NCBI GenBank assembly: GCA_046760365.1
Contig: JBHIEA010000001.1
Coordinates: 1-45,477 of the forward strand
Reading direction: 5' to 3'
Length of the DNA: 45,477 nt
Source of the DNA: a bacterium
GTDB taxonomy: Bacteria > Aerophobota > Aerophobia > Aerophobales > AE-B3A
Position 1 is the stretch's first letter; each line of letters starts with the position of its first letter. Shown here piece after piece: positions 271-45,248 of this stretch. The position numbers were made by a program, and so were the translations under genes. Under the pieces are notes generated by a model that worked only from the letters and a program-made list of their open reading frames with translations, did no database searches and had not been told where the DNA came from.

Positions 271-2730
271 ATGAGTTTTGATTATCATCCTCGAGAAATT
301 GAGCAAAAATGGCAGAAAAGGTGGGAGAAGGAAGGTACCTTCGTCTGCCAAAAAAAGGAGGATCAGAAAAAATATTACCTTCTAGAGATGCTTCCTTATA
401 CTTCCGGGGGCATCCATATGGGACACGTACGAAATTATACCATGGGAGACGTGGTAGCTAGATATAAGAGGATGCAAGGTCACAATGTTCTTCATCCCAT
501 TGGATTTGATGCTTTTGGCCTTCCTGCTGAAAATGCCGCCATTGAGAAAAATATTCATCCCCGAGAATGGACCTACCGCAATATCGAAACTTTAAGAAAG
601 CAGCTCAAGCGCCTAGGATTTTCTTATGACTGGAAGCGAGAGCTCATTACCTCTGATGAACAGTATTATCGCTGGAATCAATGGTTTTTTTTGAAATTGT
701 ATGAAAAAGGCTTAGTTTACCGAAAAAAAGCTTCTGCTAATTGGTGTTCCCATTGCCGGACCGTGCTTGCCAATGAACAGGTAGAAAATGGTAGATGTTA
801 TCGGTGTGAGACCCCGATCCTGGAAAAAGAATTAAATCAGTGGTTTTTCAGGATTACCCAATATGCCGAGGAGCTTCTGGCTGATCTCGAAGATCTGGAG
901 AACTGGCCTCTTACCGTAAAAAAAATGCAGACCAATTGGATAGGGAAAAGCGTGGGGCTCGAGATCAAATTTAGATTGGCCGAGGACTCCACCGAGATTC
1001 CTGTCTTTACTACTCGTCCCGATACTATTTTTGGGGCCACCTATCTGGTTCTTTCTCCAGAGCACCCACTGGTAGAGAAAATTACCAGAAGAAAGCCGGA
1101 AATAAAGCCGGTGGTGGAAAAGATGAGGCTTGAGGCACCAACCAGAGGAGAGATTAAAAAAGAAGGGATTCCCACCGGCTCTGAGGCTATAAATCCAGCA
1201 AATGAAGAGAGAATACCGATCTGGATAGCCAATTATGTACTTATCCAGTACGGAACCGGAGCCATTATGGCTGTCCCTGCCCATGATGAGCGAGACTTTG
1301 AATTTGCCAAAAAGTATAATCTTCCCCTCAGAGTAGTTGTTCGCCCTTCTGGTTCTAATCTTGATGAAAAAAATATAAAGGAAGCTTACCTGGAAGAAGG
1401 GAAAATGGTCAACTCAGAGCAGTTTAATGGCCTCTCGAGTCAGGCAGCGAGAAAGAAGATGAGCCTCTGGATGCAGAAGAAGGGAATAGCTACCCCCAAG
1501 GTTAACTATAAACTGCGAGATTGGTGCATTTCTCGCCAGAGATATTGGGGAACGCCGATCCCCATGATTCATTGCCCGGAATGTGGAGTGGTACCGGTTC
1601 CTGAGAAGGACCTTCCCGTGGTTCTGCCTTGGAATGTTAAAATCACCACCAGAGGAGTATCCCCTTTGAGTAAGGTTTCCTCCTTTGTCAGGTGTAAGTG
1701 CCCTCAGTGCAAGCAGGATGCCAGACGGGATACCGATACCATGGACACCTTTGTTGACTCTTCCTGGTATTTTTTAAGATATGCCAGTAAAAGACATGAT
1801 AAGATTTGTTTTGACTCTGATGAAGTTAATTATTGGATGCCCGTAGATCAGTATATCGGAGGAGTCGAACACGCTATCCTTCATCTGTTGTATTCTCGTT
1901 TCTTTACCAAGGTTTTGCGAGACTTACGACTTATCCAAGTGGGAGAGCCATTCAAAAGGTTGTTTACTCAAGGAATGGTAATAAAAGACGGAGCCAAGAT
2001 GTCTAAATCTAAAGGGAATGTAGTGGAGCCAGAAGAGATAATCAGAAGATATGGAGTCGATACTTTGCGAGGGTTTATCTTGTTTGCCGCTCCTCCTCAG
2101 CTTGATTTGGATTGGAAAGAGGAAGGATTAGAAGGAATAGAAAGATTCTTAAAAAGGGTGTGGAAGATCGCTAATGAATTATCTGGGGCAAGCTTTTCCG
2201 GTGATTTTAGAGAAATTTATCGTGGTCCGCAGGAACTCAACCAAAAAGAAAGAATTCTTCAGCACCAGGTACATAAGACGATAAAAAAAGTGAGTGAGGA
2301 TATTGAGCTCCGGTTTCACTTTAATACTGCTCTTGCCTCCCTTATGGAACTGGTTAATTTTCTTTACCAATATCCGGATAGAGACGCCCTAATTTATCAA
2401 GAGGCCCTTAGTATCCTGGTTCTTCTTCTCTCACCCTTTACTCCCCATATCTGTGAGGAGTTATGGCAGAAGATGGGCAATGAAAAAAGTCTGACCTTTC
2501 ACCCCTGGCCTTCTTACCGAGAAGATGCCCTCAAGAAAGAGGAAATCACCATCGTAATTCAGATTAATGGGAAGCTGCGAGACAAGATTCTAGTCTCGAG
2601 GGCTATGGTAAAAGAGGAAATTGAGAATGAGGTCTTGCGACGAGAAAAAGTAAGAAGATACCTTCAAGGTAAAGGGATTAAGAAGCTAATTTGGGTTCCT
2701 CATAAATTGGTGAATATTGTGGCTAGATAG
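271..2730 (+). CDS. leuS: leucyl-tRNA synthetase
   Basis: The ~820-aa ORF has the class-I HMGH (HIGH) and KMSKS motifs and the typical N-terminus (EIEQKWQKRW). ATG 271 is preferred over GTG 265 because AAGGGA lies about 9 nt upstream. Confidence 0.95.
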   Translation: MSFDYHPREIEQKWQKRWEKEGTFVCQKKEDQKKYYLLEMLPYTSGGIHMGHVRNYTMGDVVARYKRMQGHNVLHPIGFDAFGLPAENAAIEKNIHPREWTYRNIETLRKQLKRLGFSYDWKRELITSDEQYYRWNQWFFLKLYEKGLVYRKKASANWCSHCRTVLANEQVENGRCYRCETPILEKELNQWFFRITQYAEELLADLEDLENWPLTVKKMQTNWIGKSVGLEIKFRLAEDSTEIPVFTTRPDTIFGATYLVLSPEHPLVEKITRRKPEIKPVVEKMRLEAPTRGEIKKEGIPTGSEAINPANEERIPIWIANYVLIQYGTGAIMAVPAHDERDFEFAKKYNLPLRVVVRPSGSNLDEKNIKEAYLEEGKMVNSEQFNGLSSQAARKKMSLWMQKKGIATPKVNYKLRDWCISRQRYWGTPIPMIHCPECGVVPVPEKDLPVVLPWNVKITTRGVSPLSKVSSFVRCKCPQCKQDARRDTDTMDTFVDSSWYFLRYASKRHDKICFDSDEVNYWMPVDQYIGGVEHAILHLLYSRFFTKVLRDLRLIQVGEPFKRLFTQGMVIKDGAKMSKSKGNVVEPEEIIRRYGVDTLRGFILFAAPPQLDLDWKEEGLEGIERFLKRVWKIANELSGASFSGDFREIYRGPQELNQKERILQHQVHKTIKKVSEDIELRFHFNTALASLMELVNFLYQYPDRDALIYQEALSILVLLLSPFTPHICEELWQKMGNEKSLTFHPWPSYREDALKKEEITIVIQINGKLRDKILVSRAMVKEEIENEVLRREKVRRYLQGKGIKKLIWVPHKLVNIVAR

Positions 2731-3809: not shown

Positions 3810-5177
<1,368 letters not shown>

Positions 5178-5420
5178 ATCCTCTGGACCTTGACCTTTGG
5201 AAATTAATCTTCTCTTAATCACCTAGCTGACAAAAGAAAGCCTATGTGAACTCTGGTTCCCTAATCTTTGATGAAACTAGGAACTCAAAAGATGATAAAG
5301 GCCAGTATCCGTGGTACAGAGGAATGTTCCTCATACGTCCTTTCCTTATATAGCACTTCTCGTTGGTGCTATTTTTCTGAGTGGTAGCCCCATTAGAGAA
5401 ATTTCTCGGCAAAAAGGGGG

Positions 5421-9271: not shown

Positions 9272-10146
9272 TGAATAGAAAGATTACCAGAAAGATGAAA
9301 AGAGTGCTTTTGTACCTTATGGTAGTCATTATTTTAATATCGGTGCTGATACCTTTTGTTTGGATGGTCTCTGGTTCTTTTAAGACCAGGCTGGAGATTC
9401 AGGCATCAGACATTAAAATAGCGGGCAAGGAACCTAGCTGGATACCCCGCAGGCCTACTCTGAATAATTATAAGATGGTAAACAAGGAGGTTAAGATACT
9501 GAATTACTTTAGAAATAGCATAATCATAAGTCCTGGAACCATGTTCTTTTGTGTTCTTATCGCCGTTCTCGCTGGCTACTCTGTCTCTCGTTTTGCTTTT
9601 CCCGGTAGAACTGTCTATACCGTTTCGATATTGTCCACTCAGATGTTTCCCGGAATCCTTTTCCTCATTCCTTACTTTGTGATGTTTGTCTGGATAAGAA
9701 AAAACATAGGCCTTCCCATGAGAAATACTTATTGGGGGATGATTTTTACCTATACCTCTTTTGCTCTTCCCTTTTCTATCTGGATTCTGAGAGGTTACTT
9801 TAATACCATTCCGAGAGAGATAGATGAACAGGCCCAGATTGATGGATGTACTCGGCTAGGAGCTCTTTTTAGGGTCATAATTCCCTTAGCCAAGCCGGGC
9901 ATCACCGCAGTGGGCATATACGGGTTTATTATGGCCTGGAATGAGATATTGTTTGCCACTGTACTTACAGGAAAGGACACGACGACGGTGGCTATCGGCC
10001 TTCTGAAATATATCACCGCGCAAGAGGCCCGCTGGGGTGGAATGATGGCTGCTTGTGTATTGGTGAGTCTTCCAGTACTGGCATTTTTTACAGTATTGCA
10101 GAGGCAATTTGTTCGTGGCTTAGTTACTGGGGCGACAAAGGGGTAA
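9271..10146 (+). CDS. sugar ABC transporter permease (MalG-like)
   Basis: Multi-TM protein with the EAA loop EQAQIDGCTRLGALFRVIIPLAKPG. The GTG start overlaps the upstream stop by 1 nt. Confidence 0.9.
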   Translation: MNRKITRKMKRVLLYLMVVIILISVLIPFVWMVSGSFKTRLEIQASDIKIAGKEPSWIPRRPTLNNYKMVNKEVKILNYFRNSIIISPGTMFFCVLIAVLAGYSVSRFAFPGRTVYTVSILSTQMFPGILFLIPYFVMFVWIRKNIGLPMRNTYWGMIFTYTSFALPFSIWILRGYFNTIPREIDEQAQIDGCTRLGALFRVIIPLAKPGITAVGIYGFIMAWNEILFATVLTGKDTTTVAIGLLKYITAQEARWGGMMAACVLVSLPVLAFFTVLQRQFVRGLVTGATKG

Positions 10147-18403: not shown

Positions 18404-18431
18404 TTGACAAAATACAGGTTGTGTATAGAAT
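18404..18431 (+). promoter_or_regulatory. sigma-70-like promoter of the glycine riboswitch transcript
   Basis: TTGACA at 18404-18409, a 16-nt spacer, then TAGAAT at 18426-18431. Confidence 0.45.
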
Positions 18432-18467
18432 TCAGAATGGTTGAAAATATGGTATGGCTAGAGGGCG

Positions 18468-18651
18468 ATTAAGGGAGAGACCAGAAACATCTGGCGCCGA
18501 AGGGGCAATCCTTAACTCCAAACTCTCAGGCAAAAGGACCTTAATTAGCTAGCTCTCTGGAGAAGCTTTCCTTAAATCTGATCAAGGAAAGAACCGAAGG
18601 GGCAGTCTTGCCTTGGTAGGCAAGACGAATCTCTCAGGTAAAAGGACAGAG
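18468..18651 (+). promoter_or_regulatory. tandem glycine riboswitch (two aptamers)
   Basis: Aptamer 1 has P1 ATTAAGG/CCTTAAT, GGAGAG, CTGGCGCCGAAGGGGCAA and CTCTCAGGCAAAAGGAC. Aptamer 2 has CTCTGGAGAA, ACCGAAGGGGCA and CTCTCAGGTAAAAGGACAGAG. These are the canonical conserved cores of the gcvT glycine riboswitch class. Confidence 0.92.
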
Positions 18652-18689
18652 GGCACGACACCCATCAAGTTGTCGTGTCCTCTTTTTTA
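18648..18689 (+). terminator. intrinsic terminator (expression platform of the glycine riboswitch)
   Basis: AGAGGGCACGACA (18648-18660) pairs with TGTCGTGTCCTCT (18671-18683), giving 13 bp with one G-U, then TTTTTT. Its 5' arm overlaps the 3' strand of aptamer-2 P1 (CAGAG). Confidence 0.85.
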
Positions 18690-18717
18690 TTGAGGATGAA
18701 GATACAGAGATTACTAG

Positions 18718-18930
18718 AGGGATAGGAATTTCAATAATTTCTCTGAATTGTTATCAAGTAAACCTCAGCAGACCAGATATCAGAAAAAAGAGGGGAGGCC
18801 TGCTCTCTCATGCCCTGAGCGGACGGGCAGAGTGCCGAAAGGCAGCGAGAGTCGGCTTTGCCGATCGAGCCGTCGAGGGGGGCATTCCGAAGGAATCGGC
18901 GAAGCCCTATTTCCCCCTCGAGTATCTTGT
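18718..18930 (+). repeat. unclassified ~200-nt intergenic repeat / candidate structured RNA, copy 1 (213 nt)
   Basis: Hand-aligned to 41621-41814 with about a dozen substitutions over ~186 alignable positions plus indels of 22, 4 and 1 nt. It contains hairpins AATAATT/AATTGTT, TGCC-GAAA-GGCA, TCGGC-TTT-GCCGA and ATTCC-GAA-GGAAT, and an 8-bp helix CGAGGGGG/CCCCCTCG. Confidence 0.85.
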
Positions 18931-18945
18931 GAGGGAGGGGCACCA

Positions 18946-20139
18946 ATGCAAATTGCAAGAAGAATGGGAAGACTAGGGACTGAAACTGCATTTGAAGTTT
19001 TGGCACAGGTAAATAGGCTCAAAGCAGAAGGCCAAGATATTATAAGTTTTGCTTTAGGAGAGCCTGATTTTGATACCCCTACGAATATTAAAGATGCAGC
19101 AATGAAGGCAATTACTGATGGTTATACTCATTACAGTCCCTCGGCTGGAATCCTTCCTTTGAGAGAGTCGATTGCGCACTACATTTCTGATACCAGAGGC
19201 ATGGGGGTGGAACCTGATGAGGTAGTGGTTACTCCCGGGGCAAAACCAATAATTTTTGATAGCATCCTTTCCTGTGTTAATGAAGGGGATGAGGTGATAT
19301 ATCCCAACCCGGGATTTCCCATCTATGAATCGGTTATAGACTTCTTAGGGGCAAAACCAGTTCCTCTTCCCCTTTTGGAAGAGAAAAACTTCAGTTTTGA
19401 TCCAGAGGATCTCAGGAGGAGAATAAGCCCCAGAACGAGGATGATCATTCTCAATTCTCCCCACAATCCCACCGGTGGCATCTTAAGTCAGGATGATCTG
19501 GAAACTATTGCTGAAATAGCTATGAAAAATGATCTGTGGATTTTGTCTGACGAGGTCTACTCTAAGATTATCTATGACGGGAAGTTTCAAAGTATCATTT
19601 CTATCCCGGGGATGAAGGAGAGAACGATTCTGGTGGATGGTTTTTCTAAGACTTATGCTATGACTGGCTGGCGATTGGGATTTGGCATAATGAAGAAGGA
19701 GTTGGCCGTAGATATTGCCAGAATAGAGACCAACGTTGATTCCTGTACGGCAACTTTTACCCAGTATGCGGGAATAGAGGCCCTGAAAGGTCCGCAGGAT
19801 GAATCTTCAGCCATGATAGCTGAATTTCAGAGAAGGCGAGATCTCATCTATGAGGAATTGAATGACATCGAGGGAATAAAGTGTCTGAAGCCGAAAGGAG
19901 CTTTTTACATATACCCAAATGTAACCGAGGCTTGCCGGAATCTAGATTTGGGTGACTCAAAGGAGCTTCAACAATATCTATTACACCGCGCAAAGGTAGC
20001 GGTATTGGCAAGAAGCTGTTTTGGCAGGCGAAACGAAGGGGAGAAAGAGGAATATATCAGATTGTCTTATGCGACTTCCAGAAAAAACATAATCGAAGGA
20101 GTAAAAAAAATTAAAAAAGCTATTGAATCTAAGTCTTAG
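18946..20139 (+). CDS. class-I PLP aminotransferase (aspartate/alanine aminotransferase type)
   Basis: 398 aa starting MQIARRMGRLGTETAFEV. Motifs are GEPDFDTP, NSPHNPTG and the PLP-lysine motif SKTYAMTGWRLGF. The SD GAGGGAGGGG lies 6 nt upstream. The longer ORF-track start (18748) runs through the non-coding repeat. Confidence 0.9.
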   Translation: MQIARRMGRLGTETAFEVLAQVNRLKAEGQDIISFALGEPDFDTPTNIKDAAMKAITDGYTHYSPSAGILPLRESIAHYISDTRGMGVEPDEVVVTPGAKPIIFDSILSCVNEGDEVIYPNPGFPIYESVIDFLGAKPVPLPLLEEKNFSFDPEDLRRRISPRTRMIILNSPHNPTGGILSQDDLETIAEIAMKNDLWILSDEVYSKIIYDGKFQSIISIPGMKERTILVDGFSKTYAMTGWRLGFGIMKKELAVDIARIETNVDSCTATFTQYAGIEALKGPQDESSAMIAEFQRRRDLIYEELNDIEGIKCLKPKGAFYIYPNVTEACRNLDLGDSKELQQYLLHRAKVAVLARSCFGRRNEGEKEEYIRLSYATSRKNIIEGVKKIKKAIESKS

Positions 20140-20174: not shown

Positions 20175-23100
20175 ATGGAAAAGAGACAGTTTTCATCAAA
20201 GGAAGCCTCCTCAGGAAAACGCGATCCGGCTTACTCAAATTTTCTCTTGGAGGAAAATCTCTCTGAGGTAGACCCTGATACGGACCTTATCATCGGTTTT
20301 GAGGAAGACCGGCAAGCCAAAAAGCTTATCCTCATTCCTTCCGAAAGCATCTGCCCCAAAGCTGTCCGCCAGGCCCTGGGCTCGGTCTTCACTAGCCTCT
20401 ATGCGGAAGGATATCCCCCCTTAAGAATGACCAGGGACGAAGAATCTCTGTTATTAGATTTCAAGGATCAGCTTGCCCACTGCCGACGCTATGCCGATAG
20501 ACGATTTTACAAAGGAGGTGAGTACGCCAATTTTGTTGAAGCTTTAGCCCAGAGGCGGGCCGCCCAATGCTTTGCTACCGATAACAGTCCCAATGCTCCC
20601 CTAAAGGTTGGGGCTGATCAAATATTTGTCAATGTACAACCTCTCTCCGGAGCAGCGGCTAATAACTCTGTGTATGAGGCTTTTGTTGAACCTGGTGATA
20701 CGGTTATGGGTATGGCTTTAGCCCATGGAGGCCATCTAACCCACGGCAGTGAGTTCAATCGATCCGGCAAGCGCTATCATATCGTTTCCTATGGAGTTAG
20801 TGAAGAAACCGGCAGATTAGATTATGAGGTGATCAAAAGGCTGGCCATCGAGCATAAACCAAAAATGATCATTGCCGGCTATACCTCCTATCCCTGGGCC
20901 CCTGACTGGCAGAAGTTCAGAGAGATTGCTGACAGTGTGGGAGCTATACTCTTCGCTGATATTGCTCATCCCGCGGGACTGGTGATTGCGGGGCAATATC
21001 CAAGTCCAGTTGGTTATGCTGACGTCATTACCTTAACCACTCATAAAACGCTCTGTGGTCCCCGTGGTGCAGTTATTTTGACTACCGATGAGGAAAAGGC
21101 CCAAAGAATAGACAATGCCGTCTTTCCTGGCGAGCAGGGGGGGCCTCACGTTAATAAGTTTGCCGCTATGGCGGTAGCTTTTAAGATTGCCCAAACAAAA
21201 AAGTTCAAAAAACTTCAAGAAAAAATTGTAGAAAATGCGCAGGTTCTGGTCTCTTCTCTTAAGAGGCGAGGCTTAGAGATAGCCTATGGAGGGACAAATA
21301 CTCACCTTTTGGTAATCGATCTAAGGGCTGTTAAAGCCAGGACGGGCTTTCCTCTAAAGGGTGAAATAGCTGCTCGCATCCTGGATCTTTGCGGCCTGGT
21401 GGTTAATAAGAACACTATTCCTGGTGATGAGACAGCCGCCGAGGCCAGCGGTGTCCGTCTGGGAACCCCCTGGATTACTCAGCGAGGACTAGGGAAAAAG
21501 GAGATAAAGAAGTTAGCCGAACTTATTCACCGGGTTATCACCAGGATTCAGCCTTTTAGCTACACAGGGCTGAAAGGGGATCTACCCCGAGGAAAGATAG
21601 ATTTAGAGACTCTTGAAGAAGTAAGACAGGAAGTAGCGGAACTGACCCAGACAGCCAAGGCTGAGACTTCCACCCATGAGCGAGCGGCTAAGCTTGGGTA
21701 TCCCCATTATGATGTTCCCGCAAAGCCTTCGGTAAAAAAGACCAGCTTACTTACGCAGCACCGGAAGCTGGGGGGGAAAATCGTCGAAAATAACGGTTGG
21801 GAAATGCCCATTCATTATGAAAATTTTACCGAAGAACTTAAAGCCGCCCGGATGACAGCGGTCATTTTCGACCTCGGCGACATGGGACTACTGAAGGTAA
21901 GTGGAGAAAGGGCCAAGCCCTTTCTCCAAGGGGTGTCTACCAAAAATCTAGCCGAGCTTAAGCCGGGAGAGTTCCTGCGTTCTTTTCTTCTGGACTCACA
22001 AGCTCAACTCATCGACGAGGTTTCTATTCTCTATTTAAATTGTGATAATAGTGGTAGAGACCATTATTTGGTAGTGACCAATCCGTCCCAGACTGAAAAG
22101 GTAAAGTCGTGGCTGCGGGGACTTTCCGACGGATATATTACTTTCGACCCCGATGATATATTTGCCAAAATTGAAGGACCAGCAGTAGTGGAGGACTTAG
22201 GAGAGACTGTTGAAAAAGGGTCACGCAGGATGGGAATAGCTTTGTACGGACCAAATTCTTCCAAAATCCTCAGGAAAATAGACTCTTCTTTGGGGAATCT
22301 TAAGAAATTTAATTTCCGGCAAGCGAAGATCGGACAAATCCAAGCCATCATCTCCCGAACCGGCTATACCAAGGACTCCTTAGGATTTGAATTCTATATC
22401 CACCCAAACGACGCCATCAAGCTCTGGAATCTACTTTTAAGACAAGGAAGGGAGTTTGGCATTAGGCCAGCCGGGCTTTTGACCAGAAATCATTTGCGCT
22501 CAGAAGCAGGTCCGCCTTCCCATGAAGATCCTAAATTCAAAACTCCCGGGCTTTCTCTATATAAGGCTCACCCCTCTCATTTTCATCTTTCAAAGCCTTA
22601 TTTTATTGGACAAAAGACTATTGATAAAGCGCTAGGATCCTTGGTAGCGAAAGAGGAGTTTCAATATAAGGAAGAGAAAGGGAAGCTAAGACAAAGTCCT
22701 CTGTATGATGAGCATTTGAAACTAGGGGCTAAGTTTGTTAAGTTTACCGGTTGGAAGATGCCTGTTTGTTACACCAGTATTAATGAGGAGCACCGGGCAG
22801 TAAGAGAGACAGCCGGGCTTTTTGATGTAGCCCATATGGGAGTAATAGAAATTGCGGGTGAGCACGCTGCCAGTTTCCTGGATACCGTTTCTACTAACTA
22901 CGTGCGATGGTTAAAAGATGGGCAATCTCAGTACGCCTACCTTCTCGATCCTGATGGCAATATCCTGGATGACGTTATGATCTATCGCCGCCATTGCCAT
23001 CGATATATGATGGTGGTCAATGCCGTTAATGAGCCCAAGATCTGGGCCTGGCTACGCGCTGTCAACTCCAAAAAATTTCTCATAGATCGAGACCATCCCA

Positions 23101-23921
23101 ATAAAGAGATTGAAGGAAAAGCGGTTCTCAGGAATCTAAAAGAGGCCTCATCCGGAAGGGATCAAAAAGTTGATCTGGCTCTCCAGGGCCCTAGTTCACT
23201 CTCCATATTACAGAAATTGGCAAAAGAGAAAGAGCTGAAGGGAAAATTAGCCAGAATTAGGAAAAATGAATTCCTGGAGGTTGAGCTTTCCGGAATTGAG
23301 ATGATAATTTCCCGGAGCGGTTATACCGGCGAAGATGTTGGCTATGAGCTTTATCTACATCCTGAAAACGCTACTCTCATTTGGAACCTGCTTTTAAGAG
23401 AGGGCAAAGATTTTGGCATTAAACCCTCTGGTCTGGGGGCCCGAGATTCAACCAGGATTGAAGCTGGTCTACCCTTATACGGACATGAGCTGGCTGGCAA
23501 ATACGGTATTACTCCTACTGAGGCTGGTTATGGGGCATTTGTTAAACTTCACAAACCCTACTTTATCGGGAAAAAGCGCCTTTTGAAAAGGCAACAGAGG
23601 AAAATGGAGATTATTCGTTTCAAGATGAAATCTAAAGGTATCAGAATGGTAAAATCAGAAGATCCCATCGTTGATGAAAAAGGCCAATACATTGGGAGAG
23701 TTACCAGTTGTGCTTTGGTGGGTGGGATTCAGCTTGGACTGGCTTATGTGGATAAAGATTTCGCAGAGGAAGGAAGAAAAATCGGAATATTTATTCTTCC
23801 GCGAGGAGGAAAATTTCTTCCAGAGGTCCCTAAAGATGAACTGATCAGAGGAGATAGGGTACTTCTTCACGAAGAAGCTATAGTCTTAAGCCGCTTCCCT
23901 GAAAAAAACAGCAGGATCTAG
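20175..23921 (+). CDS. three-domain fusion: divergent serine hydroxymethyltransferase-like domain + truncated GcvT-like domain + complete GcvT (aminomethyltransferase) domain
   Basis: Residues ~40-500 are SHMT-fold (SES..YAEGYP, GGHLTHG, TTHKTLCGPRG). Residues ~523-815 are GcvT-like (GWEMPIHY, FDLGDMGLLKVSG). Residues ~841-1248 are a canonical GcvT (GWKMPVCY, FDVAHMGVIEIAG, C-terminal barrel). Internal repeats pair up as KPYFIGQKT/KPYFIGKKR and LWNLLLRQGREFGIRPAGL/IWNLLLREGKDFGIKPSGL. Confidence 0.88.
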   Translation: MEKRQFSSKEASSGKRDPAYSNFLLEENLSEVDPDTDLIIGFEEDRQAKKLILIPSESICPKAVRQALGSVFTSLYAEGYPPLRMTRDEESLLLDFKDQLAHCRRYADRRFYKGGEYANFVEALAQRRAAQCFATDNSPNAPLKVGADQIFVNVQPLSGAAANNSVYEAFVEPGDTVMGMALAHGGHLTHGSEFNRSGKRYHIVSYGVSEETGRLDYEVIKRLAIEHKPKMIIAGYTSYPWAPDWQKFREIADSVGAILFADIAHPAGLVIAGQYPSPVGYADVITLTTHKTLCGPRGAVILTTDEEKAQRIDNAVFPGEQGGPHVNKFAAMAVAFKIAQTKKFKKLQEKIVENAQVLVSSLKRRGLEIAYGGTNTHLLVIDLRAVKARTGFPLKGEIAARILDLCGLVVNKNTIPGDETAAEASGVRLGTPWITQRGLGKKEIKKLAELIHRVITRIQPFSYTGLKGDLPRGKIDLETLEEVRQEVAELTQTAKAETSTHERAAKLGYPHYDVPAKPSVKKTSLLTQHRKLGGKIVENNGWEMPIHYENFTEELKAARMTAVIFDLGDMGLLKVSGERAKPFLQGVSTKNLAELKPGEFLRSFLLDSQAQLIDEVSILYLNCDNSGRDHYLVVTNPSQTEKVKSWLRGLSDGYITFDPDDIFAKIEGPAVVEDLGETVEKGSRRMGIALYGPNSSKILRKIDSSLGNLKKFNFRQAKIGQIQAIISRTGYTKDSLGFEFYIHPNDAIKLWNLLLRQGREFGIRPAGLLTRNHLRSEAGPPSHEDPKFKTPGLSLYKAHPSHFHLSKPYFIGQKTIDKALGSLVAKEEFQYKEEKGKLRQSPLYDEHLKLGAKFVKFTGWKMPVCYTSINEEHRAVRETAGLFDVAHMGVIEIAGEHAASFLDTVSTNYVRWLKDGQSQYAYLLDPDGNILDDVMIYRRHCHRYMMVVNAVNEPKIWAWLRAVNSKKFLIDRDHPNKEIEGKAVLRNLKEASSGRDQKVDLALQGPSSLSILQKLAKEKELKGKLARIRKNEFLEVELSGIEMIISRSGYTGEDVGYELYLHPENATLIWNLLLREGKDFGIKPSGLGARDSTRIEAGLPLYGHELAGKYGITPTEAGYGAFVKLHKPYFIGKKRLLKRQQRKMEIIRFKMKSKGIRMVKSEDPIVDEKGQYIGRVTSCALVGGIQLGLAYVDKDFAEEGRKIGIFILPRGGKFLPEVPKDELIRGDRVLLHEEAIVLSRFPEKNSRI

Positions 23922-40609: not shown

Positions 40610-41577
40610 GCCTTTTGTCAGAAGAGATACTCACTGTTGAAGGTCTGAAGAAGTTCTTCGTTACCAAACAGGGAACAGTGCGGGCAGTCAATAGCGTCAG
40701 TTTCTCGGTAAGGCAGGGTGAGATCTGCGGGCTTGTGGGCGAATCCGGCTCAGGCAAGACCACTGTAGCTCATACTCTTGTGGGAATTTATGCACCTACC
40801 GGAGGAAGAGTCTTTTTCAAGGGACAGAGCATAGGCAGCCTCTTCAATGAACGAGCCAAGTCTTTGAAGAAGGACATCCGGATCGTCTTTCAGGACCCGG
40901 GATCGTCTCTAAATCCCAGACGGAATATTAAGCAAATCTTGGAGTTGCCCCTCAAGGTGCATGGCATCTGCGGTAATAACGACCGGATGGAAAGGGTGAT
41001 GGAACTCTTGAGAATGGTGGAATTGCCACCGGAGGACTACATGTACAAATATCCGCAGGCGATCGGCGGGGGAGAGAAGCAGATGGTGGCGATCGCCAGG
41101 GCCCTTGCCTCTAATCCCTCCTTTGTGGTCTTGGATGAGCCGACCTCAGCCCTGGACGTCTCGGTTCAGGCCAAGATCATCAACTTGCTGATGCAACTCA
41201 GGGAGAAGTTCGACCTTACGTATCTTTTCATCACTCATGACCTATCCCTGATGCGGAACATTGCCAGCAGGGTCGTAATCATGTACCTGGGGAAGATCAG
41301 CGAGGTTGCCCCTACGGTGGAGTTCTTCCAGAATCCATTCCATCCTTATACGAAGATGCTGCTCTCCTCGATACCGGCGGTCTCTGATGAGGAAGAGGAC
41401 CTCAAGCCGAAGGAGGTAATCTCTAAGGGAGAGATTCCGAGCCCGGTTAACATCCCGCCGGGGTGCAGTTTCCACCTGCGATGTCCCGAGAAGATGAACA
41501 TCTGCTCTCGGGTTGACCCGATGATGGCAAAGGTAGGAGAGGAACACACTGTCAGGTGTCATCTATTTACGGAATGA
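40606..41577 (+). CDS. peptide ABC transporter ATP-binding protein (DppF/OppF-like)
   Basis: Walker A GESGSGKT, Walker B VVLDEPTS, and C-terminal FHPYTKMLL. ATG 40606 forms an ATGA overlap with the upstream stop. Confidence 0.9.
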   Translation: MSLLSEEILTVEGLKKFFVTKQGTVRAVNSVSFSVRQGEICGLVGESGSGKTTVAHTLVGIYAPTGGRVFFKGQSIGSLFNERAKSLKKDIRIVFQDPGSSLNPRRNIKQILELPLKVHGICGNNDRMERVMELLRMVELPPEDYMYKYPQAIGGGEKQMVAIARALASNPSFVVLDEPTSALDVSVQAKIINLLMQLREKFDLTYLFITHDLSLMRNIASRVVIMYLGKISEVAPTVEFFQNPFHPYTKMLLSSIPAVSDEEEDLKPKEVISKGEIPSPVNIPPGCSFHLRCPEKMNICSRVDPMMAKVGEEHTVRCHLFTE

Positions 41578-41620
41578 AATACGCGGGACAACACGGCTAT
41601 TATCGGCTGCGTCTATTTAA

Positions 41621-41814
41621 AGGTATCGGAATGTCAATAATTTCTATGAGTTGTTATGAAGTAAACCTCAGCAGACTAGATATCAGAAAGAAAAAAGAGG
41701 GGAGGCCTGCTCTCTCACGCCCTGAGCGAACGACCATCGGCTTTGCCGATGGAGCCGTCGAGGGGGAATTCCAAAGGAATCGGCGAAGCCCTATTTCCCC
41801 CTCGAGTATCTTGT
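41621..41814 (+). repeat. unclassified ~200-nt intergenic repeat / candidate structured RNA, copy 2 (194 nt)
   Basis: Same orientation as 18718-18930 and near-identical to it. It lacks the 22-nt GAAA hairpin segment and instead has a longer CCATCGGC-TTT-GCCGATGG stem. Confidence 0.85.
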
Positions 41815-42010
41815 TGGCTCATATATTCAGGCGATTTTTTGTGCATGAAGAAAGTGAAGCTAAGAATAAGGCCGGAGGGGGGTGAGTGGGTAGCCAGGCC
41901 ATTAGCTGGGAAATAAAAGAAGATTTTCGAAAAAGAGAAGTGTCGTAAGATCAATTTCTGTTGGGGGAGTTTTCAGACAAAATGGACTAGGTTAATAAGG
42001 AGGAGGGAAA

Positions 42011-43315
42011 GTGAAGAAAACAAGCAAAAGCATTTTGATGTTGATGTCAATTATCTTGGGAGTAAGTGTAATGGCTTATGCTGCCGAGCCTGTCACCATT
42101 ACTTTTATGGGATGGGGTAGTCCTCTCGAGAGAGCGAATGTCGAAGAGGGCGTGAAGGTATTTAATCAGAAACATCCTGAGATTAATGTCAAGTGGATAC
42201 ATGTTCCGGCAGACTATGAAACCAAGCTGTTTACCATGGTGGCAGGGGGTACCGCACCAGACGTATTTTGGGGAGGAATAGACTTTTATCGAGAATACGC
42301 TTATCGAGGTCTACTACTAGATATTACTGATCAGGTGAAGAATGATCCTATAATAGGTAAACCAGGCTATTTCATCGAACCATGGGAAGAGGAAAGATGT
42401 GCTATAGAAGGACGTTGGTACGGGATAGGTTCTTGCTGGACCCTAATCCATATGTTTTACAATAAGGAGGTCTTTGATGAGGCAGGAGCAGAGTATCCAC
42501 CTGTGGATCCCGATAAGGCCTGGGACTGGAGCCATTTTGTAGAAATTGCTCAAAAGCTAACCTCTAAGGCCGATTCCAAATGGGGAGCCTACATTCCAAC
42601 AGCTTGGTGGATGCCGTACGATCCTTTCATAGCTTCCAATGGAGGTGAGTACGTCAACAAAGAAGGGAAGGTTGCTCTGGATGAACCCGAAGCAGTGGAG
42701 GCATTACAGCAAATAGCGGACCTTACCAATAAGGTACAGGTAGCTCCTCATGCAGTAGACTTGCAGGAGTTAGGACTGGGCGCTTGGCAGATGTTAGCCA
42801 CCGGTCGCCTTGGGATGCTAGTTGATGGGTCTTGGGCCCTCCAAGATATTAGTAAGCTTGATTTCGAGTTTGGTTGCGCAGCTTTGCCTAAGTTTAAGGT
42901 GCCGGTTACTACCATGCAAGCACATTTGCATGTTATACACAAGGACACAAAACACCCTAAGGAAGCGTGGGAATTCTTGAGGTTCCTGGCCAGCGATTAC
43001 TATCAGCTGAGCTTATGTAAGGTAGGATTATGGCTACCTAGTCACAGCAGCCTCTTTACCCCTGAGGGACTTAAACAGTGGATAACTCCTGAAGTCCATC
43101 CAGAAGGCTATGCTAAGTTGATCGCCAAGTATATGGACAAATATGCGAGGATTCTCTACATGCCTATAGGATGGCGAAAAGCAAGTTGGTCCATAATTTT
43201 CCCGGGGTTGGAGCCGCTTTGGCTCGGTAAGAAGACTGCTCAAGAATGTGTAAACGAGATGGTGCCAAAAGCTAACGCAACCTTAGCCAAGGAGTTAAAG
43301 AGAATCAAAGGATAG
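42011..43315 (+). CDS. ABC transporter extracellular sugar-binding protein (CUT1 / SBP family 1)
   Basis: 434 aa with a signal peptide-like N-terminus and ITFMGWGSP...APDVFW typical of family 1. GTG start with AGGAGGAGGG upstream. Confidence 0.88.
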   Translation: MKKTSKSILMLMSIILGVSVMAYAAEPVTITFMGWGSPLERANVEEGVKVFNQKHPEINVKWIHVPADYETKLFTMVAGGTAPDVFWGGIDFYREYAYRGLLLDITDQVKNDPIIGKPGYFIEPWEEERCAIEGRWYGIGSCWTLIHMFYNKEVFDEAGAEYPPVDPDKAWDWSHFVEIAQKLTSKADSKWGAYIPTAWWMPYDPFIASNGGEYVNKEGKVALDEPEAVEALQQIADLTNKVQVAPHAVDLQELGLGAWQMLATGRLGMLVDGSWALQDISKLDFEFGCAALPKFKVPVTTMQAHLHVIHKDTKHPKEAWEFLRFLASDYYQLSLCKVGLWLPSHSSLFTPEGLKQWITPEVHPEGYAKLIAKYMDKYARILYMPIGWRKASWSIIFPGLEPLWLGKKTAQECVNEMVPKANATLAKELKRIKG

Positions 43316-43365
43316 ACCTGGGGCTTGGTTTGAATATTTGGGAGATAACGCTAAATAGCGTTTTC

Positions 43366-43408
43366 CTATCACTGGGGAGACTCTGGAAAGTGGTCTACCC
43401 AGTGATAG
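43366..43408 (+). other. strong intercistronic stem-loop after the second sugar-binding-protein gene
   Basis: A perfect 11-bp stem CTATCACTGGG / CCCAGTGATAG plus an inner AGAC/GTCT. No U-tract follows. A small hairpin AACGCT-AAAT-AGCGTT plus TTTT lies at 43347-43364. Confidence 0.55.
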
Positions 43409-43449
43409 ATTCTGTAGTTCTGAATTGAAAGGAGAGGGAAACCGCCTAG

Positions 43450-44370
43450 ATGGAAAAGAGGTTATTTGATAACCGGGAGCGGTTGAACAAAGGCTCCCTA
43501 AGCCGGAAAAGAATCACTGCTGGATATCTATTTATTTCTCCTATCCTTTTAGGAATGTTAATCTGGCTTGTCTTTCCGATGTCTTTTTCTCTTTGGTTAA
43601 GTGGCCATGAGTGGGACTTGATATCTGAGCCCAGTTTCATCGGCCTGGGTAATTTCAAGGAGGTATTATCCGATGAACTTTTCTGGCAGTCCCTTAAGGT
43701 GACGCTTTACTTTTCAGGAGTTTCTGTCCCTCTTTCTCTAATCACTGCCTTCCTAGTTGCCTTGCTCTTAAACATAGAGATAAAGGGAAGGAGTGTATTC
43801 CGAGCCCTTTACTATCTTCCGAGCGTCATTCCTGTAGTAGCTAATTGCGTTTTGTGGGTCTGGATACTTAACTCAGAGTTTGGGCTTCTCAATTTTTTTC
43901 TGAGCAAGCTGGGCTTATCGAAAGTTTTGTGGTTACAAGAGCCTAAGTGGACTATGCCAGCATTAATCATTATGAGTCTGTGGGGAATAGGACCTCTAGT
44001 AGTCCTTTACTTAGCTGGTTTGCAAGGCATTTCTCGGCAACTTTATGAGGCGGCAGAAATAGACGGAGCTAACTGGGGAAATAAATTCCTTTTTATCACA
44101 ATACCAATGATGTCGCCGGTTATATTCTTTAATTTGATAATAGGGCTCATCAATGCATTTCAGACCTTTACTCAAGCATATATTATGACTCAAGGAGGAC
44201 CTCAGAATGCTACTTTGTTTTATGTGTTCTATCTTTACCAAAACGCCTTCCAATGGATGAGGATGGGCTATGCCTGTGCATTGGCTTGGATTTTGTTTGC
44301 CACTATTTTGATTTGCACCCTATTCATATTTAGACACTTCGAAAGATTGGTCTATTATGCGGGAACATGA
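43450..44370 (+). CDS. sugar ABC transporter permease (MalF-like)
   Basis: EAA loop YEAAEIDGANWGNKFLFITIPMM and 6 TM segments. Confidence 0.9.
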   Translation: MEKRLFDNRERLNKGSLSRKRITAGYLFISPILLGMLIWLVFPMSFSLWLSGHEWDLISEPSFIGLGNFKEVLSDELFWQSLKVTLYFSGVSVPLSLITAFLVALLLNIEIKGRSVFRALYYLPSVIPVVANCVLWVWILNSEFGLLNFFLSKLGLSKVLWLQEPKWTMPALIIMSLWGIGPLVVLYLAGLQGISRQLYEAAEIDGANWGNKFLFITIPMMSPVIFFNLIIGLINAFQTFTQAYIMTQGGPQNATLFYVFYLYQNAFQWMRMGYACALAWILFATILICTLFIFRHFERLVYYAGT

Positions 44371-45248
44371 GGAGAGATAAAGTAAGAATTATGAAGGGAG
44401 ATAGGAGAACACAGATTCAGATATTGGCTTTAAGTAGGCGAGTTTTGGTCAGGTTGGTTCTTTGCGCAGGGGCGGTGATAATGTTAGCGCCCTTTTTTTG
44501 GTTGGCTTCCAGTTCCCTTAAAGATTTAAGTAAGATATGGCTGTTTCCTCCCCAATGGATACCCAATCCCATAAGATGGGATAACTATTCTAAAGCTCTA
44601 ACAACTATGCCCTTTCTCCTTTTCTTTAAGAACACCATAATTATTATCCTCTTTGTAGAATTGGGAACACTTGTTTCGGCTTCTTTATGTGCTTACGGCT
44701 TTACTTTCTGTCGCTTTCCCGGCAGGAATTTTATCTTCTTTGTGGTTTTAAGCACGATGATGCTCCCCTACGCAGTAATCATTATCCCCACATATATTAT
44801 GTGGAAGTACCTTCGTGGCATCGATACTTTCTACCCCTTGATTGTACCAGCTTTTTTTGGGGGAGGGGCATTTAATATCTTCTTATTGCGGCAATTCTTC
44901 AGGACTCTTCCTCCTGCGTTAATCGATGCCGCTCGGATAGATGGTTGCTCGGAATTAGGCATTCATGCAAGGATAGTAATACCTTTATCTAAGCCAGCTT
45001 TAGCCACAATAGGTGTTTTTACTTTCATGTGGCACTGGAATGATTTCTTGGCACCACTAGTTTATCTATCTACTCCAGAGAAATTTACTGTCTCCTTGGG
45101 TTTGGCTTCTTTTCAGGGCCTATATAGTACGCAATGGGGTTACCTGATGGCTGCTGCTACAGTAGTCACTATTCCAGTTGTTCTGGTCTTCTTCTTTGCC
45201 CAAAGGTATTTTGTGGAGGGGATAACCTTAACCGGAATGAAAGGTTAA
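44367..45248 (+). CDS. sugar ABC transporter permease (MalG-like)
   Basis: EAA loop IDAARIDGCSELGIHARIVIPLSKPA. ATGA overlap with the upstream gene. Confidence 0.9.
   Translation: MRRDKVRIMKGDRRTQIQILALSRRVLVRLVLCAGAVIMLAPFFWLASSSLKDLSKIWLFPPQWIPNPIRWDNYSKALTTMPFLLFFKNTIIIILFVELGTLVSASLCAYGFTFCRFPGRNFIFFVVLSTMMLPYAVIIIPTYIMWKYLRGIDTFYPLIVPAFFGGGAFNIFLLRQFFRTLPPALIDAARIDGCSELGIHARIVIPLSKPALATIGVFTFMWHWNDFLAPLVYLSTPEKFTVSLGLASFQGLYSTQWGYLMAAATVVTIPVVLVFFFAQRYFVEGITLTGMKG

Follow-up and report, generated by a model that had tools for sequence, protein, structure and literature searches.

We analysed a 45,477-nt stretch of a contig from a metagenome-assembled bacterial genome (JBHIEA010000001.1, assembly GCA_046760365.1; GTDB phylum Aerophobota), hereafter the window, which carries two copies of a small noncoding element as a direct repeat on the forward strand. 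Both copies were delimited by a repeat search and MAFFT alignment (Table 1), and this study starts from the second of them, copy 2, which is 197 nt long. On its 5' side, the open reading frame (ORF) of an oligopeptide-type ABC transporter ATPase (dppF-like) stops at 41577, which is 40 nt before the homology between the copies begins and 43 nt before the start assigned to the element in an earlier, sequence-only reading of this DNA. On its 3' side, the gene of a sugar-binding protein (SBP_bac_1) starts at 42011, 196 nt past the element. Copy 1 lies between the terminator of a glycine riboswitch and the ribosome-binding site (RBS) of an aminotransferase gene (ATG at 18946). The sequence-only reading had described copy 2 as a second copy in an unrelated context; the direct repeat is confirmed, and unrelated contexts turn out to be the rule across the family to which the two copies belong.

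The two copies align in four ungapped blocks of 75, 44, 30 and 53 nt (88, 95, 97 and 96% identity, respectively), split by insertions or deletions (indels) of 4, 22 and 1 nt. The long 3' block AAGGAATCGGCGAAGCCCTATTTCCCCCTCGAGTATCTTGT, previously described as identical in both copies, is indeed the same, and the final ~41 nt are without differences. With at most one mismatch allowed, the 13-nt hairpin ATTCCGAAGGAAT is found at only two sites of the window, which are the two copies; shuffled sequences contained a mean of 0.07 matches and none of 100 shuffles reached two or more. Because the window copies share derived characters, namely CCTCAGCAGAC and the hexamer GCCTGC, an inversion of the GCAGGC found in the other copies, they are related to each other within the lineage of this genome. 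A covariance model of the 65-nt family core (R1) recovers the core of copy 2 at 41753-41815 with 81.7 bits (E 1.3e-19).

Table 1. Coordinates of the two window copies, the parts of copy 2 and the leader preceding copy 1
Feature	Position	Strand	Evidence or remark
Copy 2, full-length	41618..41814	+	Repeat search, MAFFT, covariance model R1
P0 5' strand AAGGTAT	41620..41626	+	Pairs with 3' terminus GTATCTT (41806-41812) and closes the element; RNAalifold
Module A hairpin AATAATT-TCTATG-AGTTGTT	41636..41655	+	Helix 94% paired across 18 copies, one double change
G-tract GAGGGGAG, then GGCCTGCTCTCTCA	41697..41717	+	GCCTGC inverted relative to family GCAGGC; only in the two window copies
Variable-region hairpin CCATCGGC-TTT-GCCGATGG	41734..41752	+	8 bp here, 5 bp in all other copies
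3' core three-way junction	41758..41805	+	P1 TCGAGGGGG/CCCCCTCGA
P2 of 3' core, ATTCC-AAA-GGAAT	41768-41780		
P3 of 3' core, GGC-GAA-GCC	41782-41790		
Junction of 3' core, CTATTT	41791-41796		
Copy 1	18715..18930	+	Architecture of copy 2 plus private GAAA-hairpin insertion (18833-18844); R1, 88.4 bits
Copy 1 leader: sigma-70 promoter TTGACA-16-TAGAAT	18404-18431	+	
Copy 1 leader: tandem glycine riboswitch	18458-18653	+	
Copy 1 leader: terminator hairpin and T-run	~18650-18688	+	

Copy 1 is preceded by a strong, near-consensus sigma-70 promoter, a glycine riboswitch (65.5 bits with the Rfam Glycine model; a tandem model covers the full span) and a terminator, and it therefore lies within a transcribed leader. 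Its insertion point separates the riboswitch expression platform from the regulated aminotransferase and glycine-cleavage operon. An open frame (18748-20139) runs from inside copy 1 into the aminotransferase gene in frame, probably by chance. A coding role of the element was rejected, since the indels between copies (22, 4, 1 and 29 nt) are not multiples of three and there is no common frame.

To collect further copies, we used an exact 20-mer of the 3' block. It retrieved 39 metagenome contigs from marine subsurface and salt-marsh sediments, of which 37 (~30 distinct sites) share homology around the word; the remaining two (L002, L021; contigs and loci are given by L numbers) match in the 20-mer only. 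An exact 22-mer of the same block retrieved one contig among 185,579 species representatives, from an uncultured 'Clostridia' metagenome-assembled genome (MAG), and the element, 12 nt upstream of ribBA, is cut off by the end of this contig. Model R1 scored full-length cores at 63-96 bits and added one copy without the exact word. The elements of the family are noncoding, ~160-250 nt long and multicopy, with several copies per contig or sample. The same is seen in assembly: all Logan short-read contigs with the window's aminotransferase and sugar-binding genes start inside the core, the end of contig L001 falls inside the element, and such breaks are the signature of a multicopy repeat.

The leucyl-tRNA synthetase (LeuRS) of the window organism is 65-69% identical to proteins of Candidatus Aerophobetes, its nearest named relatives, and the carriers of the family are close relatives of the window organism, uncultured sediment bacteria related to Candidatus Aerophobetes. 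Rfam 15 gave no match to either window copy at gathering score and only noise (E of at least 1.5) in a search up to E 10, and no match on the elements in 20 related loci; plasmid and phage BLAST and a word scan of viral contigs gave no match to the element. No copy was found in 48 kb from three relatives (L054, L055, L059); for the relatives with 82-86% identity in ribosomal protein L9, the sequence without a copy is 33 kb. Group II intron domain V, the hammerhead ribozyme, an IS200/605 end or omega-RNA and a riboswitch regulon were considered and dropped, as the defining features of each are lacking in the sequence. An integron attC site was likewise rejected: the copies are scattered before housekeeping genes, with no arrays and no GTTRRRY/RYYYAAC ends.

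The breadth of this collection bears on whether copy 2 could be an independent small-RNA gene, or the pair a private segmental duplication of this genome. Copy 2 does lie between operons and away from a start codon, and a T-run follows it by ~30 nt, as a small-RNA gene might have it. The ~30 further loci in other contigs and organisms refute a private duplication, most copies abut an RBS, no promoter-like sigma-70 site was found in or just before either window copy, and no hairpin adjoins the T-run; we regard both possibilities as highly improbable. An apparent extended -10 (TGTTATCAA) in module A, described below, was dropped, as it is not kept across copies.

Across the family, the element has a common anatomy. 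Read 5' to 3' on the forward strand, it consists of a terminus T-W-N-AGGTAT, a ~75-nt module A that includes the hairpin AAUAAUU/AAUUGUU, an A-run, a G-tract GAGGGGAGCA, a helix Pa (GGCYCGA...UCGRGCC), a three-way junction and a tail GUAUCUU. Helix Pa encloses either a 5-nt loop or one of several insertions: GCUCGAGCGAAGCGAGAG with the hairpin UCGGC-UUU-GCCGA, a CUCUC...GAGAG variant, an 80-nt insertion in L014, or the GAAA hairpin of copy 1 only. The L014 insertion (1031-1100, minus strand) is ~80 nt long and carries its own G5/C5 hairpin (GGAGGGGGAAACAUCCCCC), so the Pa-enclosed segment takes large additions. The 3' three-way junction is constant and comprises P1 UCGAGGGGGG/CCCCCCUCGA, P2 AUUCC-GAA-GGAAU, P3 GGC-GAA-GCC and the junction strand CUAUUU. 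The tail pairs back to the 5' terminus (helix P0, 84% paired, with a positionally fixed G.U in 16 of 18 copies) and closes the whole unit.

In a full-length alignment of 18 copies, 93.5% of the helix cells pair, versus at most 54% with slid partners, and in the core alignment of 34 copies 96% of cells pair. Compensatory changes are found in P1, from C-G to U-A in seven cores and from G-C to A-U in one, and in Pa, from U-A to C-G in three full-length copies; elsewhere Pa persists in another form, as GGCC-GAA-GGCC in L027 and as GC-GUAA-GC in L051. A long-range helix CAGATATC/GAGTATCTTG suggested by single-sequence folds was discarded, as many copies have A.C there without compensation and the termini pair instead. 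As judged from these alignments, the secondary structure of the family is real and maintained, with covariation support that is real but thin. Variation in overall form is considerable: an alternative 5' module, module B, is present in L003, L024, L029, L037 and L008; L018, L036, L034 and L038 are 5'-truncated copies with an intact 3' end; and in L031 the form is minimal, with an inverted repeat of 17 nt.

Against this family background, the differences between the two window copies can be read more closely. The sequence-only reading had considered them structure-aware, which holds as far as the helices are kept well above the slid-partner level and compensatory changes occur in two of them. 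More specifically, AATTGTT to AGTTGTT turns a U-A into a U-G pair in the module A hairpin (U.G in copy 2 and L025, U-A in the other copies), and the substitutions TCTCTG to TCTATG and GAA to AAA fall in loops as described. The 22-nt segment with the GAAA hairpin (TGCC-GAAA-GGCA) is confined to copy 1, as had been reported; copy 2 has the family's usual length, so the segment is a private insertion in copy 1 and not a loss from copy 2. The notion of an optional or variable stem is borne out, since copies 1 and 2 differ here in a region that varies throughout the family and lies inside a covarying helix. The 8-bp stem of copy 2 that stands against TCGGC/GCCGA in copy 1 is also present. It does not preserve the family structure: through private substitutions (alignment columns 142-148 and 163) CGACCA stands in place of GCGAGAG, with the loss of the family GAGAG strand, and a C-to-G change turns the Pa 3' strand from TCGAGCC to TGGAGCC. 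Together these changes create the longer hairpin at the cost of pairing kept by the rest of the family.

No other full-length member of the family has diverged as far as copy 2, whose identity to the consensus is 82%, a value partly deflated by local misalignment. Its true private substitutions number ~8-10, the most of any copy, versus 0-3 in most, and include a G-to-A change in the loop of P2, where 33 of 34 cores have G. Because it lies 196 nt from the next gene and has the most private changes, some at otherwise invariant positions, we read copy 2 as probably displaced and in decay, most likely a passenger in a 3' untranslated region or intergenic RNA and not an independent regulator. The nearest relative of the downstream sugar operon (95% identity in the sugar-binding protein) shares only 150 nt of upstream sequence and then differs, which places copy 2 at a synteny breakpoint. 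An empty site for copy 2 itself could not be used, since this sole close relative differs in synteny and allows no clean comparison.

Evidence on how the element comes and goes was obtained at the rplI locus. Relatives share synteny across rpsF-ssb-rpsR-rplI, with a hypervariable rpsR-rplI spacer. The locus is empty in L054 and L055 (82-86% L9 identity), both of which read ...GAGTGTAGGCTTTGCGAGAGGGTAGGGTATG (...TTTCCTGAGTAATTGAGTGTAGGCTTTGCGAGAGGGTAGGGTATG), and filled in L012 and L005, where a whole element of ~165 nt stands between GTGTAGGTT and GTGAAAGGGTAGA-ATG with both flanks conserved. This is a clean pair of empty and filled sites, 16 nt before the ATG. In addition, strains whose rplI DNA is 95-99% identical carry either module A (L005, L012) or module B (L003, L024, L029) before the same core, and the core, 91-98% identical among these strains, is no better conserved than the rplI gene itself. 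At a CoA-ligase locus, L034 has a truncated core in the place that a TTGACA-17-TATAAT promoter and an attenuator-like hairpin take in distant relatives. In the leaders of those relatives (L051 3600-3760, minus strand; L052 20050-20160) the attenuator-like feature is a conserved hairpin followed by a U-run (CUCCGUGC...GCACGGAG UUUUUU).

Thus the element comes or goes whole, and copies recombine with one another. The clean empty site, the swapped 5' modules and the contigs that break inside the element argue that it behaves as mobile, recombining DNA. Mobile DNA and a substrate for recombination had been offered as an alternative in the sequence-only reading, and it is this half that the rplI empty site and the module swaps favour. 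The other half, a specific functional RNA, for which a clean empty site had been named beforehand as the refuting result, was not supported: such a site exists at rplI, 5' modules are swapped, the core evolves no slower than the adjacent gene, the downstream genes are unrelated and the junction is absent from the L051 homologue.

The placement of the copies relative to genes is the second main feature of the family. Where flanking genes are co-directional, ~18 distinct loci have the element in sense orientation and one in antisense (L009/L017); in the divergent intergenic regions L022 and L026 its 3' end still faces the adjacent gene start. The distance from the element's 3' end to a start codon with a Shine-Dalgarno sequence is 12-30 nt at 13-15 of ~29 distinct loci; on the 5' side, gaps vary between 0 and 370 nt. 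Functionally unrelated housekeeping genes follow the element, among them acpP, rplI, gltX, lgt, murJ, argC, ilvD, ribBA, aminotransferases, an ADP-forming CoA ligase and a tRNA.

Taken together, we consider it probable that the window repeat is a member of a new, lineage-restricted family of small noncoding mosaic interspersed repeats, which behave as mobile, recombining DNA and are co-transcribed into the leaders of genes. In this arrangement, the element would be carried into mRNA leaders and intercistronic RNA, and its self-contained fold could, as with BOX, ERIC and Correia repeats, alter the decay of the mRNA or the translation of the downstream cistron. We hypothesize that tolerance of, or benefit from, the transcribed fold may account for where the element is placed.

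Several results weigh against this interpretation. A consistent target-site duplication is absent across 18 junction pairs, and the rplI empty site allows at most TT. The terminal inverted repeat is only ~7 bp (AAGGTAT/GTATCTT) and complementary only with two fixed G.T pairs. Neither a transposase nor a parent insertion sequence was found, and no transposase gene was seen beside a copy or in the annotated loci. The compensatory changes amount to only ~3-4 independent events; the P1 C-G to U-A and Pa changes belong to one subfamily. Single-sequence folds are not unusually stable (z-scores of -0.9 to -1.9 on either strand), and in the core G.U exceeds A.C by only 13:7, a count that does not tell selection on RNA from selection on DNA. 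The invariance of the core is partly a selection bias of the exact 20-mer search. Finally, the predicted accessibility of the RBS and start region, compared between real and shuffled elements, changed in no consistent direction over 13 loci, and sequestration or insulation of the RBS by the element was rejected on this ground.

Some of these points would suit purely selfish DNA, in which the helices are DNA hairpins or cruciforms for a trans-acting transposase of the REP/RAYT (repetitive extragenic palindrome/REP-associated tyrosine transposase), IS200/IS605 or MITE type (miniature transposable elements with inverted repeats) and the RNA has no role. The sense bias would then come from replication-strand-specific insertion and the position before genes from a target preference; all window genes lie on one strand, so that gene and replication orientation are confounded there. 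The clean empty site and whole-block gain and loss fit such an element, as do the complementary termini, the inverted repeat of L031 and a REP-like module B in the same genomes; the compensatory C-G to T-A changes fit DNA hairpins equally, and the G.U excess is weak. What makes selfish DNA unlikely in our view is that the fixed-position G.U pairs in P0 (16 of 18 copies) and in the module A hairpin (12 of 18) are mismatches in DNA and on the opposite strand, and that the 3' end points at the adjacent gene start even in the divergent regions; that no transposase gene was seen beside any copy or in the annotated loci counts against it as well.

Conversely, the strict sense position directly upstream of the Shine-Dalgarno sequence would be expected of a conserved cis-regulatory RNA, such as a riboswitch that senses a global signal, an RNA thermometer or a site bound by a global RNA-binding protein or RNase. 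Its aptamer or site would be the 3' three-way junction, and control of the adjacent RBS would come from the G-tracts, the C-tract CCCCCCUC and the Shine-Dalgarno sequence competing with one another. Minimum-free-energy folds indeed pair an upstream GAGGGG with the C-tract as an alternative, P1 and Pa covary, the loops and junction are invariant in 34 copies, and the order of G-tract, Pa, G-C stem and GAA hairpin is found again, 44 nt before a start codon, in a relative whose LeuRS identity is only 66%. We judge such a regulator improbable, as the downstream genes have no common function, the core is conserved no better than neighbouring coding DNA, the Rfam search up to E 10 returned no match, and no consistent effect on RBS accessibility is predicted; the invariance is biased by the exact-word search. 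A dedicated riboswitch or ribozyme is unlikely: genes of unrelated function follow the element, relatives (those with 82-86% L9 identity) have empty orthologous sites, and the junction (P3 and CUAUUU) is not conserved in the L051 homologue.

A further possibility combines both aspects: the 3' module (G/C-tract stem, GAA-capped hairpins and terminal pairing) would be a portable functional leader, spread by a mobile element and fixed 12-30 nt upstream of housekeeping starts for an expression benefit. We give this only a small chance. It could represent a new cis-acting RNA signal, for example for processing or 5'-end stabilization, or it could be recognized by an RNA-binding protein or RNase specific to the lineage.

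Related sequences were found in more distant relatives. The simpler homologue in L051, the 66% LeuRS relative mentioned above, consists of GGGGGAGCA, GC-GUAA-GC, GUUGAGGGGG, AAUGC-GAA-GCAUU and CCCCCUCAA. L056 (76% L9 identity) has a different repeat of ~230 nt upstream of rplI and purH (9610-9840, plus strand; 5080-5300, minus strand), each copy of which contains an inverted pair of the exact ATTCCGAAGGAAT/ATTCCTTCGGAAT hairpin; this hairpin is therefore a building block common to several repeat families of the clade. In the relative L049 (71% LeuRS identity), the spacer of a tRNA cluster upstream of leuS holds a P2- and P3-like fragment (AUUCC-GUAA-GGAAU, GUC-GAA-GAC; 9560-9605).

Module B itself is made of GTAG and GC-rich palindromes, for example GGGTAGCCGCACCC-TTTA-GGGTGCGCAGGC-TAAA-GCCTGCGACTACC, and has a REP- or REPIN-like look. 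It occurs both alone and fused to the 3' core, at L033 6051-6135, L003 548-611, L024 326-389, L029 6829-6888, L037 3279-3332 and L049 9786-9815, with a compensated variant (GCAACC/GGTTGC) in L008. No ORF separates a 5' module from the core in 60 loci, and no RAYT gene is among the Pfam-annotated genes of the window and annotated loci.

Other features of the window concern its gene content. The segment 31500-41600 has 50-55% G+C, compared to 42-46% elsewhere in the window, and contains hydantoinase/oxoprolinase A and B and dpp-type ABC transporter genes; its composition suggests acquired DNA. Its right edge is copy 2, and its left edge lies near 31 kb, not at copy 1. Downstream of copy 2, the sugar-binding protein of the operon at 42011-45248 (L044/L045) has, after the 95% relative, next matches of at most 53%, the named ones from Chloroflexi-type MAGs. 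Judging by these matches, the operon may have been laterally acquired, and the ~150 nt conserved 5' of the sugar-binding gene may hold a promoter or operator. Downstream of copy 1, an ORF of 1248 amino acids (20175-23921) joins a serine hydroxymethyltransferase domain (residues 106-451) to a glycine-cleavage T-protein domain (residues 843-1121); it is called as a fusion on independent Logan contigs (L041) too.

The family described here is a new repeat family for a candidate phylum known from metagenomes only. It explains why short-read assemblies of these bacteria break before many genes, and it marks hot spots of rearrangement between strains. Copy 1, placed between a glycine riboswitch and its gene, is a natural experiment on the tolerance of a structured insertion in a leader. 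If placement does reflect function, the 3' junction would be a compact, transferable leader module.

Among known systems, MITEs share with the element its small size, lack of coding capacity, multiple copies and presence/absence polymorphism (as at rplI), with the difference that the element has no consistent target-site duplication. Like the RAYT-mobilized REPs and the bacterial interspersed mosaic elements (BIMEs), it is a mosaic of short GC-rich palindromic units, with the GTAG-palindrome module B fused to some cores. A REP unit is defined by GTAG and a palindrome; the core, which starts GTCGAGGGGGG and ends in a branched junction, is different, and module B (GTAGCCGCACCC-TTTA-GGGTGCG) fits the definition but is a separate module. 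REPs are usually found at the 3' ends of genes, unlike the element.

Correia repeats of Neisseria and the enterobacterial repetitive intergenic consensus or intergenic repeat units (ERIC/IRU) of enterobacteria are MITEs that act at the mRNA level once transcribed, with documented effects on the stability and expression of co-transcribed genes (PMC3049150, PMC2649163). They are multicopy and polymorphic between strains in presence or absence, as is the element, and all fold as RNA, Correia and ERIC as simple long hairpins where the element ends in a branched three-way junction. Correia repeats possess terminal inverted repeats of 26 nt, a TA duplication, outward promoters and an integration host factor (IHF) site, none of which was seen in the element.

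A close parallel is the BOX element of Streptococcus pneumoniae (boxA-boxB(n)-boxC). Both are small noncoding modular repeats with constant ends and a middle of variable length, both are intergenic and confined to a narrow lineage, and extensive RNA structure is predicted in both; BOX is co-transcribed with its neighbours, and one BOX lies between two T-box riboswitches, inside a riboswitch leader much as copy 1 does (PMC3049150). The two have no sequence similarity. BOX has recognized terminal inverted repeats, target duplications and a proposed mobilizing insertion sequence, whereas the element has minimal terminal repeats and neither a duplication nor a partner was found for it; its near-exclusive sense orientation and its position 12-30 nt before start codons are stricter than described for BOX (PMC3049150). 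The element is a new family of a familiar kind and not a new mechanism, and its strict placement and its insertion into a riboswitch leader are what set it apart.

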